A DNA stretch of 64,000 nucleotides, from the NCBI RefSeq assembly GCF_024223415.1, contig NZ_CP100500.1; one strand, 5' to 3'. Position 1 is the first letter of the stretch. The number at the start of each line of letters is the position of its first letter. Positions 38,701-44,700 of this stretch are shown here, piece after piece. Source of the stretch: Escherichia coli (GTDB lineage Bacteria > Pseudomonadota > Gammaproteobacteria > Enterobacterales > Enterobacteriaceae). A program made the position numbers.

Positions 38701-41700
38701 CTTCGATAAGGACGTTTATGATCCAGATTGATCTTCCCACGCTGGTAAAACGGCTGAACCTGTTCTCCCGCCAGGCGCTGGAGATGGCCGCCTCAGAATG
38801 TATGAGCCAGCAGGCAGCGGAAATTACCGTCAGCCATGTGCTTATTCAGATGCTCGCCATGCCACGCAGTGACCTGCGGGTTATCACCCGGCAGGGCGAT
38901 ATTGGCATGGAAGAGTTGCGCCAGGCGCTGACGGTGGAGAACTACACAACCGCCCGTTCTGCAGACAGCTACCCGGCGTTTTCCCCGATGCTGGTTGAGT
39001 GGCTGAAAGAGGGCTGGCTGCTGGCGTCGGCTGAGATGCAGCACAGCGAACTGCGCGGCGGCGTGTTGCTGCTGGCCCTGCTGCATTCGCCGCTGCGTTA
39101 TATACCGCCTGCTGCCGCCCGGCTGTTGACCGGCATTAACCGTGACCGTCTGCAACAGGACTTTGTGCAGTGGACACAGGAGTCGGCGGAATCAGTCGTG
39201 CCGGATGCAGACGGTAAAGGCGCAGGCACACTGACGGACGCCTCTGACACCCTGCTTGCCCGCTACGCCAAAAACATGACAGAAGATGCCCGTAACGGCA
39301 GGCTTGACCCGGTACTGTGCCGCGACCACGAAATCGACCTGATGATCGACATTCTCTGCCGCCGCCGTAAAAACAACCCGGTGGTGGTGGGCGAAGCAGG
39401 CGTGGGTAAAAGCGCGCTGATTGAAGGGCTGGCGCTGCGCATCGTGGCAGGCCAGGTGCCGGACAAACTGAAAAACACCGATATCATGACCCTTGACCTG
39501 GGCGCATTGCAGGCCGGGGCGTCGGTGAAGGGTGAATTCGAAAAACGCTTCAAGGGGCTGATGGCGGAGGTCATTTCCTCTCCGGTGCCGGTCATTCTGT
39601 TTATCGACGAAGCACATACCCTGATTGGCGCGGGCAACCAGCAGGGCGGGCTGGATATCTCCAACCTGCTCAAACCGGCGCTGGCGCGCGGCGAGCTGAA
39701 AACCATCGCCGCCACCACCTGGAGCGAGTACAAAAAATACTTCGAGAAAGACGCCGCCCTGTCGCGCCGCTTCCAGTTGGTGAAGGTCAGCGAACCCAGT
39801 GCCGCCGAAGCCACCATTATTCTGCGCGGTCTGTCGGCGGTCTATGAACAGTCTCACGGCGTCCTGATTGATGATGACGCCTTGCAGGCCGCTGCGACAT
39901 TAAGTGAACGTTATCTCTCCGGGCGTCAGTTGCCGGACAAAGCGATTGATGTGCTGGATACCGCCTGCGCCCGTGTGGCAATCAACCTGTCATCGCCACC
40001 GAAACAAATCTCGGCGCTGCCCACCCTGAGCCACCAGCAGGAGGCGGAAATTCGCCAGCTTGAGCGCGAGCTTCGCATCGGACTGCGTACCGACACATCA
40101 CGGATGACCGAGGTGCTGGTGCAGTATGATGAAACGCTGACGGCGCTGGATGAACTGGAAGCGGCCTGGCACCAGCAGCAGACGCTGGTCCGGGAGATTA
40201 TCGCGCTGCGCCAGCAGTTACTGGGCGTGGCAGAGGACGATGCGGCGCCGTTGCCGGACGCAGATACCGTGGAGGATACGCAGCCAGAGTCAGAACAGGA
40301 TAATACCGGTGCTGTACCGGCTGATGAAGCTGGCAGCGTACAGCCGGAAGAGACCGCTGAAACAGTTTCCCCGGTACAGCGGCTGGCCCAGCTCACTGCC
40401 GAGCTGGACGCCCTGCATAACGACCGGTTGCTGGTCTCCCCGCACGTCGATAAAAAACAGATTGCGGCGGTGATTGCCGAATGGACCGGCGTGCCGCTCA
40501 ACCGCCTGTCGCAGAATGAAATGTCGGTCATCACCGACCTGCCGAAATGGCTGGGCGACACCATCAAAGGCCAGGACCTGGCGATTGCCAGCCTGCATAA
40601 GCATCTACTGACCGCACGCGCCGACCTGCGTCGTCCGGGACGCCCGCTCGGTGCGTTCCTGCTGGCTGGCCCCAGCGGTGTGGGTAAAACCGAAACCGTC
40701 CTGCAACTGGCAGAGCTGCTCTACGGCGGTCGCCAGTACCTGACCACCATCAATATGTCCGAATTCCAGGAGAAACACACCGTCTCGCGGCTGATTGGTT
40801 CGCCTCCGGGCTACGTTGGCTACGGCGAAGGCGGCGTACTGACCGAAGCGATTCGCCAGAAACCCTACTCGGTAGTACTGCTCGATGAAGTGGAAAAAGC
40901 GCACCCGGATGTGCTCAACCTGTTCTACCAGGCGTTCGATAAGGGCGAAATGGCAGACGGTGAAGGCCGCCTGATTGACTGCAAAAATATCGTCTTCTTC
41001 CTGACGTCCAACCTCGGCTACCAGGTAATAGTCGAGCATGCCGATGACCCGGAAACCATGCAGGAAGTACTGTATCCGGTGCTGGCCGACTTCTTCAAAC
41101 CTGCCCTGCTGGCGCGTATGGAAGTGGTGCCGTATCTGCCGCTGTCGAAAGAGACGCTCGCCACCATTATCGCCGGGAAACTGGCCCGTCTGGATAACGT
41201 GCTGCGCAGTCGCTTTGGTGCAGAAGTGGTCATTGAACCGGAAGTGACGGACGAAATCATGAGCCGCGTCACCCGCGCGGAAAACGGCGCGAGGATGCTG
41301 GAATCGGTCATCGATGGCGACATGCTACCGCCGCTCTCGCTGCTGCTGTTGCAGAAAATGGCGGCTAACACGGCGATTGCCCGGATTCGGTTGTCGGCAG
41401 TGGACGGCGCATTTACGGCAGACGTGGAAGATGCTCAGAACGACGAGTCCGTCACAAAGGATGAAACGGTTTTATGAGCAGGTTGCGCGTTTTCCGGCAG
41501 ACAGGATGGTTTATCGCGGGCCTGATGACGGGCTTACCCGCCACTGCCGCGCCCGCAGAAGCATCGTCAATGGCCGGTGTGGCGGTCGCCGTCGCCACCA
41601 CGACCCCGCCGGATGCGACAGCCACGTTACAGGCCATGCAGTCCTGTCGGCGGGAGTCCGCGGCGCTGGAGCGGCTTGACTGCTATGACCGCCTGCTGGC

Positions 41701-44700
41701 ACCGCTGTCCCCGTCAGGGTTTGACGGGGCGCTGGTCAAAGCCGGTTTTGTGGGCGAGGCCTGGACCCGCGCCACAGAGCAGGAAAAACGCCGCGAGGGC
41801 AACACCACAGAACTGCTGGTGACGCAGGTGCCGGGGGAGCGCCGACGGTGGTGATAACCACCCCGGCTATCGGCCATGTTCCGCCGCGCCCGGTGCTGAT
41901 GTTCAGTTGCGTGGACAATATCACCCGGATGCAGGTGGCGCTGATGCACCCTCTGGATGTCCATGATATCGCCGTCACTCTGAATGCCGACAGCCGGGCA
42001 TTGCGCAGCCACTGGTTTGTGCGCGAGAACGGCACCCTGCTGGAGTCCAGCAGGGGGCTGTCCGGGATTGATGAAATTAAGCAACTGTTCGGCGCAAAAA
42101 CGCTGACAGTGGATACCGGCGCAGATAACGCCGCAGGAAAGCTGACCTTTAACATTGACGGGCTGGCAAGGGCGATTGCCCCCCTGCGCGATGCCTGCCA
42201 CTGGGCGGGAGAATAAAAATATGGCAATGGACTTACGCGATCCGAATGTCTGGATATCGCACCTGCTGGAAAACCTGCCGGAAGAAAAACTGGCATCGGC
42301 GCTGAAAGATGACAACCCGGACTGGGAGTATATCGACGGCGAAATCGTCAAACTGGGATCTCTGGCCCACAGTCAACTGGATATCCCGGAACTCCAGCGC
42401 CGGGGGCTGGTCATTCTGGCTTCGGAGAGTAAGGACTTTCGTCTGCTGGCGCATCTGCTGAGAACCCTGCAACACGCCGGTGATCCTCATCTCGCATTGC
42501 GCCTGCTGGCGCTGTATGTGGAGCATTACTGGTCGGTGGCTGCGCCGCAGAATATGGCACATAAAAAACGCTTTGCCAGCCAGGTCATTAAACGCTTTGA
42601 AACAGGTATTGAAGGCTTTTCACAGAACGCCGCCACAGCGCAGCGCGACGCGCTGTCAGGGGAACTGGCGAAACTGGCGCAGTGCTGGCAGTCACATAAC
42701 GCCCCGGAACTGGCACTGGCTACCGATGATCTTTTTGCCCTGTACCAGCGTGCGTTTAATCGTGCAGCACCGGCTCCTGTCCCCACTCCGGCGGCCTCCG
42801 GTAGTTCACCACAGACCACCGCCACGTCTGAAAGCGGCGTGACGCAACCCAGTGCTCCGGCTCCACAAATAGCCATTGACAGTCACGACGACAAAGCCTG
42901 GCGCGACACGCTGTTAAAAGTGGCGGCCATTTTATGTGAACGCCAGCCGGACTCGCCGCAGGGCTATCGCCTGCGCCGCCATGCCCTGTGGCAATCCATC
43001 ACCAGTACACCCCAGGCGGAAAGCGATGGACGTACCCCATTGGCTGCGGTCTCTGCCGATATGGTGGCGGATTACCAGTCCCGGCTTGCCAGCGCGGATA
43101 TGGCGCTGTGGCAGCAGGTTGAGAAAAGCGTATTGCTGGCTCCTTACTGGCTGGACGGTCACTGTCTTTCTGCACAGACGGCACTGCGTCTGGGTTACAA
43201 ACAGGTGGCAGACACCATCCGCGATGAGGTCATCCGCTTCCTTGAGCGTCTGCCCCAGCTTACCGGACTGCTGTTTAATGACCGCACACCGTTTCTCAGT
43301 GAGCAGACGAAACAATGGCTGGCTGCTTCGCCCGACGGCAAAGTTGCACCGGTTGCGCAAATCGGTGAGGAATCGCAGGCAGCCAGAGCCTGTTTTGCTG
43401 GGCAGGGTCTGGAGGCGGCGCTGCGATATCTGGACATGCTACCCGAAGGCGATCCCCGCGATCAGTTTCACCGCCAGTACCTTGCCGCACAGTTGACGGA
43501 GGAGGCGGGGCTGATACAGCTTGCGCAGCAACAGTACCGGATGTTGTTGATGATAGGGAGTCAGATGATGGTGTCTGACTGGGAGCCATCATTACTTACG
43601 CAGCTTGAACAAAAATTCACGGCAGAACAATAAAAGAGAACAGGAGTTTTTGTGTTCAGATTACCAACACCCCGACTACTCAGCGGACTCAAATCAGCCC
43701 TACGCCCGGCGATGCCCCGGTTTAAAGTCTCCGCTTTCTGGCTGCTGATACTGGCGTGGATTTTTCTGCTGGTATGGATCTGGTGGAAAGGCCCGACGTG
43801 GACGCTGTATGAAGAACAGTGGCTCAAACCACTGGCGAACCGCTGGCTGGCAACGGCGGCATGGGGGATTATCGCCCTGGTGTGGCTTACCGTCCGGGTG
43901 ATGAAGCGCCTGCAACAACTTGAAAAAATGCAAAAGCAGCAGCGCGAGGAGGCCATTGATCCGCTCAGTGTGGAGCTGAACGCCCAGCAGCGTTACCTTG
44001 ACCGCTGGCTGCTGCGCCTGCAACGCCATCTCGACAACCGCCGTTTCCTGTGGCAGTTGCCGTGGTATATTGTCATCGGCCCGGCGGGCAGTGGCAAAAC
44101 GACACTGCTGCGCGAGGGGTTTCCGTCAGACATTATTTATGCCCCGTAGGGCGCGCGCGGCACAGAACAACGCCTGTACCTTACGCCCCATGTCGGTAAA
44201 CAGGCGGTTATCTTTGATATCGACGGCACACTCTGCGCTCCCGCTGATGCGGATATCCTGCATCGCCGTCTGTGGGAACATGCCCTCGGCTGGCTGAAAG
44301 AAAAGCGCGCGCGCCAGCCGCTGAACGGGATTATTCTGACACTCGATTTACCCGATCTGCTTACCGCAGACAAACGCCGCCGCGAGCATCTGTTACAGAC
44401 GCTGCGCAGCCGCTTGCAGGATATACGCCAGCATCTTCACTGCCAGTTACCGGTTTACGTGGTACTCACCCGGCTTGATTTATTGCAGGGTTTTGCCGCC
44501 CTGTTCCAGTCACTGAACAGACAGGATCGCGATGCGATTCTGGGCGTCACGTTCACCCGCCGCGCCCATGAAAATGATGACTGGCGAACAGAGTTGAATG
44601 CTTTCTGGCAGACATGGGTGGATCGAATGAACCTAGCGTTGCCGGATCTGATGGTCGCTCAGACTCACACCCGCGCGTCTTTATTTAGTTTTTCCCGCCA

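Follow-up and report, generated by a model that had tools for sequence, protein, structure and literature searches.

A vasI pseudogene with a one-base frameshift in the type VI secretion cluster of a small Escherichia coli clade

VasI proteins and the interval between tssH and tssA

The vasI gene is already well known as an accessory gene of type VI secretion systems (T6SS). Vibrio cholerae VasI (VCA0118) is predicted to be exported, and for this protein only it has been described that VasI is dispensable for Hcp secretion and needed for full T6SS killing (PMC3166118). The E. coli counterpart WP_000088863.1, present in strains SCU-316, NCTC9112, NCTC10444 and KV7, is one 247-aa protein encoded between tssH (clpV) and tssA, and at the E. 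coli loci inspected vasI is one CDS of 744 nt. A search of the PDB with VasI found no sequence-level relative; Bartonella henselae IalB (PDB 3DTD) resembles VasI in fold only, at a sequence identity of ~10% that carries no functional assignment, and lacks the N-terminal Cys-containing helical hairpin of VasI.

The window analysed here, a stretch of 64,000 nucleotides from E. coli contig NZ_CP100500.1, shares with V. cholerae the order clpV - vasI - tssA (vasJ) - tssM (vasK) - vasL. Unlike in V. cholerae, there is no vasH between clpV and vasI; vasH is not present in the window's cluster, and the interval from clpV to tssA holds vasI only. The window's copy is an ordinary pseudogene. The features concerned are as follows:

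38718..41477, plus strand: tssH/clpV, 919 aa; stop codon overlapping the start of vasI
41474..41854, plus strand: ORF1, the vasI 5' fragment; ATG start, 126 aa (MSRLRVFRQ...GERRRW)
41842..41843, plus strand: site of a 1-bp deletion in vasI; CC where orthologues have CCC, codons R123-P124
41848..42216, plus strand: ORF2, the vasI 3' fragment; GTG start, 122 aa as listed (MVITTPAIGH...CHWAGE)
42221..43633, plus strand: tssA, 470 aa; separated from the preceding vasI stop by 4 nt, and intact in the window
43652..47176, plus strand: tssM; nonsense codon (GAG to TAG) at 44147-44149

A preliminary description of this DNA had placed two ORFs of 126 and 122 aa, overlapping by 7 nt in different frames, between clpV and tssA, and had preferred to see in them one VasI-like gene broken by a frameshift. 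The ORF listing gives the same pair: the overlap spans 41848-41854, ORF2 is in frame -1 with respect to ORF1, the ATG of ORF1 overlaps the tssH/clpV stop within the ATGA at 41474-41477, and tssA follows from 42221. The vasI region (41474-42216) thereby occupies the location expected for the family in T6SS clusters, from clpV/tssH or vasH to tssA.

Membership in the family was assessed with the NCBIfam equivalog model TIGR03360 (cut-off 124.2 bits) and with Pfam PF11319 (formerly DUF3121), the profiles that also place VCA0118 and the window's vasI in one family. With PF11319 the concatenated translation yields a single domain that continues over the junction (model 2-184 of 184 on residues 58-245, E = 4e-52). 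TIGR03360 is covered in part by each ORF, from 1 to 67 by ORF1 (56 bits, under the cut-off) and from 71 to 187 by ORF2 (185.9 bits), and in full by the repaired 247-aa protein (1-187 of 187, 258.7 bits, over the cut-off). The proposal that the two ORFs together approximate one VasI-like protein is borne out. The family-invariant residues are all present, with C58, R67, C70 and D72 in ORF1 and C146, W181, G195, C242 and W244 in ORF2. The RLDCYD motif previously noticed in ORF1 corresponds to residues 67-72; among 75 homologues R67, C70 and D72 are invariant and L68 is nearly so. In an AlphaFold model (pLDDT 85), ORF1 comprises the helical hairpin carrying C58, R67, C70 and D72, a helix at 95-105 and the first beta-strand, and the break falls between strands 1 and 2 of the beta-domain.

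Orthologous loci consistently encode one protein. In the equivalent T6SS loci of other E. coli the counterpart is a single 247-aa protein throughout; matches covering at least 80% of the region occur in 2,725 complete E. coli genomes, and those among the matches listed are annotated with a single vasI without exception. Further afield, the match runs across the junction in one piece in 85 of 98 representatives sharing less than 60% identity; these 85 are single proteins with a median length of 227 aa. Where a single polypeptide of ~200-260 aa is expected, the window has a 126-aa and a 122-aa ORF, each in its own frame. Because the locus is encoded as two ORFs while its orthologues are single proteins, it is a vasI pseudogene and not a functional member of the family.

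The single-base lesion

Alignment to vasI of strain SCU-316 reveals one single-base gap and no other difference, and the same holds for the nucleotides behind WP_000088863.1, which are identical over the gene except for the missing C. At the deletion site the reference reads GAGCGCCCGACG and the window GAGCGCCGACG; the CCC run is present in every orthologue compared. A frameshift had been anticipated near 41840-41855, and the deletion at 41842-41843 lies inside that range. ORF1 therefore contains native residues 1-123 followed by three aberrant residues (RRW) and a premature TGA at 41852-41854; the native frame picks up again at the CCG at 41842-41844, and ORF2 contains native residues 126-247, that is, most of the beta-domain. 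We consider it very probable (roughly 0.94) that 41474-42216 is one vasI gene (VasI/TagO), inactivated by loss of one C from the CCC of codons 123/124.

The preliminary description had also offered another reading, in which each ORF is a gene in its own right and the two are translationally coupled, so that VasI would be produced as two separate halves acting together. The 7-nt overlap is in keeping with coupling, as are a GGAG at 41836-41839, 8 nt upstream of the GTG, and the score of ORF2, which exceeds the TIGR03360 cut-off by itself; the allele has moreover persisted long enough for sublineages to diverge. However, the arrangement is found in no orthologue, near or distant, and the apparent initiation signals are ordinary internal codons of intact vasI (V126 for the GTG, G121-E122 for the GGAG). 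As first reported, ORF2 starts with GTG and has no signal peptide, yet export is predicted for the family (PMC3166118); the break would part strand 1 from the rest of a single beta-domain; and further truncating mutations occur in the clade's cluster, in tssM (44147), in tagH (36002, SRR31139555) and as a deletion at 42179 (SRR19977217). With no split orthologue and an internal Val codon as the second start, this alternative does not hold up, and we regard it as highly improbable.

Programmed -1 ribosomal frameshifting or transcriptional slippage, which would restore full-length VasI from the two frames, has a negligible probability in our view. A -1 shift near 41842 would indeed bring back the native frame, and the frame of ORF2 is open from 41725. 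Against this, the 0 frame around the site (GTG CCG GGG GAG CGC CGA CGG TGG TGA) contains no slippery heptamer of the form X XXY YYZ at 41830-41854, a run of only two C is not long enough to make the polymerase slip, and the two-frame arrangement is conserved in no orthologue and in 0 of 5,426 complete E. coli genomes.

Distribution of the allele and order of events

A deletion of one base in a short homopolymer could also be a sequencing or assembly artefact, in which case the genome would really read CCC and vasI would be intact. In line with this, the deletion occurs in no complete RefSeq genome: the 38-mer across it has no match in the 5,426 complete RefSeq E. coli genomes, 1,932 of which match the intact 39-mer at the same site, and the deletion is absent from the ~2,700 complete E. 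coli genomes with the region. A run of three bases is, however, an atypical error site. At five homopolymer/indel sites with annotated frameshifts in NCTC9112 (in pepD, yafP and dkgB), the window is intact and agrees with NCTC10444, which is annotated as intact; therefore the assembly does not appear to be indel-prone. Above all, the exact 126-aa product is present in the NCBI protein record SRA14300.1 and on nine Logan contigs, independently assembled from public sequencing runs, at least five in number (ERR3437659, ERR1156339, SRR31139555, SRR19977205 and SRR19977217 are named). Some of these runs are possibly re-sequencing of one isolate; the contigs nonetheless differ at 44147, 36002, 42179 and other sites, which shows that they are not copies of one assembly. 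An artefact is thus extremely improbable. Judging from the independent assemblies, the deletion is real and inherited, is not private to the window's assembly, and marks a small E. coli clade that shares it.

These contigs also bear on the order of events. That of SRR19977205 matches the window at 100% identity from 38474 to 44854, whereas those of ERR3437659, ERR1156339 and SRR31139555 combine the vasI deletion with a G at 44147 and an intact tssM (1174 aa). In the window tssM carries the nonsense codon that had been recognized in the same cluster from the outset, together with a missense change, P542L, at 45366. Because some deletion-bearing contigs keep tssM intact, the vasI frameshift is older than the tssM nonsense codon, and on this comparison of contigs it is not a consequence of it. 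SRR31139555 has in addition a stop in tagH at 36002, and SRR19977217 a second deletion at 42179 (vasI/tssA).

The best match to the window among complete RefSeq genomes is NCTC9112, at 99.945% over 47 kb. The tssH missense change T435P at 40020 is lineage-specific. The window has 14 differences from both NCTC9112 and NCTC10444, and nine of them lie within the 17.2-kb T6SS core (binomial p = 0.006). Six of the nine, those within the compared contigs and with the tssM nonsense codon excluded, are clade markers. Relaxed selection on the core was considered and rejected, since the changes in the flanks are mostly missense as well and the numbers are too small for a difference in dN/dS.

Single T6SS genes have been inactivated by small mutations elsewhere in the same island (beside tRNA-Asp and dnaQ), as in the window. 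For instance, tssM is annotated as frameshifted in O157:H7 strain 2571, tssG in NCTC10444 and KV7, and VasL in all near relatives. These pseudogenes concern different genes and independent mutations from the window's vasI. The literature searched for pseudogenes among E. coli T6SS genes gave nothing relevant, and a search for TagO as an accessory protein gave mostly genome surveys.

Expected products and significance

Starting at its native ATG, which is coupled to the stop of clpV, translation yields 123 native residues and RRW before terminating. The N-terminus of ORF1, judged by eye, carries Arg at three of positions 3-8, is hydrophobic over 12-26 and has A-E-A at 28-30, and is plausibly a signal peptide; a hydrophobic 10-residue window likewise lies in the first 45 residues of 78 of the 85 full-length homologues. 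The stub would presumably be exported without almost the whole beta-domain. A C-terminal fragment may arise by chance re-initiation at the GTG through the GGAG at 41836-41839 and, having no signal peptide, would be expected to stay in the cytoplasm. Because the stub would lack the beta-domain and the C-terminal fragment would be cytoplasmic, the function is expected to be lost, and VasI is most likely non-functional in this strain. If VasI acts as in V. cholerae, its loss alone should weaken T6SS-dependent killing while Hcp secretion continues; in any case the nonsense codon in tssM should leave the window's strain without a working apparatus.

It is very unlikely that the split allele keeps some VasI activity, through the stub, through a C-terminal fragment made by re-initiation or through -1 slippage at a low rate. 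If it did, residual activity would account for the survival and diversification of the allele in a clade whose tssM is otherwise intact. Better supported is the reading in which the T6SS decayed stepwise, beginning with the frameshift in vasI, the tssM nonsense codon, the tagH stop and the second vasI/tssA indel having arisen later and independently in sublineages.

The lesion reveals no new gene, mechanism or family. Its practical consequences are that the two ORFs, 'hypothetical' or 'type VI secretion-associated', should be joined into a single feature and marked as a vasI pseudogene, and that the strain's T6SS should be scored as defective, given the vasI frameshift, the tssM nonsense codon and VasL, which is annotated as frameshifted in the near relatives with which the window shares its sequence. 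The locus is also a small natural record of the decay of a T6SS island, with the accessory vasI hit first and core genes later, independently in sublineages. If this stepwise decay is true, VasI would matter for the usefulness of the T6SS to E. coli in nature.

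The split vasI gene and its lesion

The preliminary description had noted two small ORFs overlapping by 7 nt in different frames, and had read them either as one vasI gene disrupted by a frameshift or as two translationally coupled genes. The ORF listing and sequence of the window confirm this layout:

41474-41854, + strand: ORF1, vasI 5' fragment, ATG start, 126 aa
41848-42216, + strand: ORF2, vasI 3' fragment, GTG start, 122 aa
41842-41843, + strand: 1-bp deletion, CC remaining, codons R123/P124

The stop codon of clpV/tssH (919 aa) overlaps the ORF1 start (ATGA, 41474-41477), and tssA starts at 42221, downstream of ORF2. 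When the concatenated translation was aligned to the family, the Pfam VasI model PF11319 matched residues 58-245 (model 2-184 of 184, E = 4e-52) and crossed the junction without interruption as one domain, which bears out the first of the two readings. The parts of the NCBIfam VasI equivalog TIGR03360 (cut-off 124.2 bits) matched by the two ORFs are consecutive and do not overlap: ORF1 covers profile positions 1-67 (56 bits, below the cut-off) and ORF2 positions 71-187 (185.9 bits); the repaired protein, with the missing C restored, spans 1-187 (258.7 bits).

The sole difference from strain SCU-316 in the alignment is one C absent from the CCC run of the window (GAGCGCCCGACG in SCU-316, GAGCGCCGACG in the window). 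The ORF1 product therefore consists of native residues 1-123 followed by RRW and a stop; the native frame is picked up again at CCG 41842, and the GTG start of ORF2 is the Val126 codon of intact vasI.

Of 5,426 complete RefSeq E. coli genomes searched by megablast with 41400-42300, 2,845 contain the region and 2,725 cover 80% or more of it; every row among the matches listed is annotated with a single vasI. In the full-length matches H1-H26 (98-99.9% identity) the 901 query bases correspond to 902 bases in the record, and at the inspected loci vasI is one CDS of 744 nt (247 aa) between tssH and tssA. Among 321 VasI relatives retrieved from 1.84 billion representative proteins, 85 of the 98 representatives at < 60% identity have a single matched stretch across query residues 110-140 (median length 227 aa). 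The readings as a coupled gene pair or as a VasI that works in two pieces are rejected, since the split is seen in no orthologue and both the ORF2 start and its Shine-Dalgarno-like motif are simply codons from within intact vasI. A programmed frameshift to yield full-length VasI is likewise rejected, as a slippery heptamer is absent and the two-frame arrangement is not conserved. The evidence thus supports one frameshifted vasI, and what the window carries is a pseudogene; the gene itself, a T6SS accessory gene, is curated and widely annotated. This adds just three things to the preliminary description: where exactly the lesion lies, its setting in the population, and the order in which the lesions arose.

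Origin of the deletion and order of events

No match to a 38-mer with the deletion at its centre exists among the 5,426 complete RefSeq E. coli genomes; the intact 39-mer at the same site matches in 1,932. That an assembly error made the frameshift is excluded for practical purposes, because the same truncated vasI occurs on independent assemblies: the exact 126-aa ORF1 product is recorded at NCBI (SRA14300.1; that of ORF2 is SRA14297.1), and independent assemblies of public runs yielded it on 9 contigs. These contigs differ among themselves and are therefore not one copied assembly. The window reads through the homopolymer sites in pepD, yafP and dkgB at which its nearest complete relative, NCTC9112 (99.945% over 47 kb), carries frameshift annotations. 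On these comparisons, we regard the vasI deletion as a genuine mutation and a marker of a small E. coli clade.

Compared with the window and NCTC10444, NCTC9112 has single-base homopolymer indels plus one AC-repeat indel (window coordinates 4335, 4606, 5104, 6444, 51657-51658 and 59440). These positions match the genes labelled 'frameshifted' in NCTC9112, namely pepD, yafP, dkgB and one hypothetical gene, and the error probably lies with the NCTC9112 reference, from long reads, rather than with the window.

The deletion is present in the public runs ERR3437659, ERR1156339 and SRR31139555. The latter two have the lineage-specific SNPs of the window at 35086, 35314, 37812, 40020 and 45366; ERR3437659, compared over 38474-44854, shares that at 40020. 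Over 38474-44854, a contig from SRR19977205 matches the window at 100% identity. The window carries a second lesion:

44147-44149: tssM nonsense codon, GAG to TAG (E to stop), in the window sequence

It cuts tssM down to a 165-aa ORF (43652-44149) and is also found in SRR19977205 and SRR19977217, but is absent from NCTC9112, NCTC10444, KV7, 4FM and the three runs ERR3437659, ERR1156339 and SRR31139555. These runs have G, not T, at 44147, and tssM is therefore intact (1174 aa). Because they carry the vasI deletion without the nonsense codon, the vasI frameshift is older than the tssM mutation.

Further truncating changes arose independently within the clade. In SRR31139555, tagH is truncated by a stop found in that run alone among those compared (CAG to TAG, equivalent to window 36002; 398-aa product). 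In SRR19977217 one more base is lost, from a C6 run (equivalent to 42179), which fuses ORF2 to tssA in a 594-aa ORF; this loss could be an assembly error.

Other changes in the T6SS island

29988-47176: T6SS core, 17.2 kb
47187-48597: VasL-domain gene, sequence identical to NCTC9112

The same island carries a single-gene tssM lesion in O157:H7 strain 2571, a tssG lesion in NCTC10444 and KV7, and a VasL lesion in all near relatives. The tssG lesion, a shared 23-bp deletion annotated as frameshifted (equivalent to 34672-34694) and lacking in the window and NCTC9112, is another independent T6SS lesion. The VasL-domain gene, downstream of tssM, is labelled 'VasL domain-containing protein, frameshifted' in NCTC9112, NCTC10444, KV7 and 4FM; given the identity to NCTC9112, the window shares this lesion, or this annotation call, and its ORF ends at 48536, just ahead of hcp at 48563.

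Fourteen non-rRNA changes set the window apart from both NCTC9112 and NCTC10444, and nine of them lie in the T6SS core (binomial p = 0.006), including TssC K144N, TssK G401R, ClpV T435P and TssM P542L; where the retrieved contigs cover such a change, the vasI-deletion clade shares it. Relaxed constraint could explain this excess, as could a distinct recombined haplotype.

Consequences for VasI and the T6SS

An alignment of 75 full-length homologues places the invariant residues C58, R67, C70 and D72 in ORF1, where the RLDCYD motif of the preliminary description covers family-invariant positions, and C146, W181, G195, C242 and W244 in ORF2. In the AlphaFold2 model built on this alignment (mean pLDDT 85; > 95 over residues 100-247), the elements are:

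VasI residues 48-58 and 64-75: helical hairpin
VasI residues 95-105: helix
VasI residues 115-119 and 125-132: opening strands of one beta-domain

The frameshift falls between these two strands. Three distant VasI representatives (P0125, P0128, P0155) are fragments of 118-131 aa whose end or start falls at about residues 121-127, next to this same point between the strands; truncation at a contig end, or a separate split in another taxon, could account for them.

Some database entries (e.g. P0050 and P0052, whose matches begin at query residue 33) start VasI at Met33, which affects the following stretch:

41474-41572, + strand: vasI residues 1-33

The putative signal peptide would thereby lose its Arg-rich N-region; the start annotation is therefore inconsistent across sources.

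The N-terminal stub would be exported without the beta-domain. ORF2 may be translated by chance re-initiation from the internal GGAG (41836-41839) and GTG; its N-terminus has no hydrophobic or positively charged leader, and its product, if made, would stay cytoplasmic, whereas export is predicted for the VasI family. tssA starts 367 nt beyond the premature vasI stop, and its translational coupling may be lowered as well. Hcp and VgrG-1 secretion was intact in V. cholerae deleted for VCA0118 (VasI), but virulence towards Dictyostelium was abolished and E. coli killing reduced (PMC3166118). By analogy, the vasI lesion by itself would weaken the T6SS rather than abolish it; the tssM nonsense codon in the window should abolish T6SS assembly regardless of vasI.
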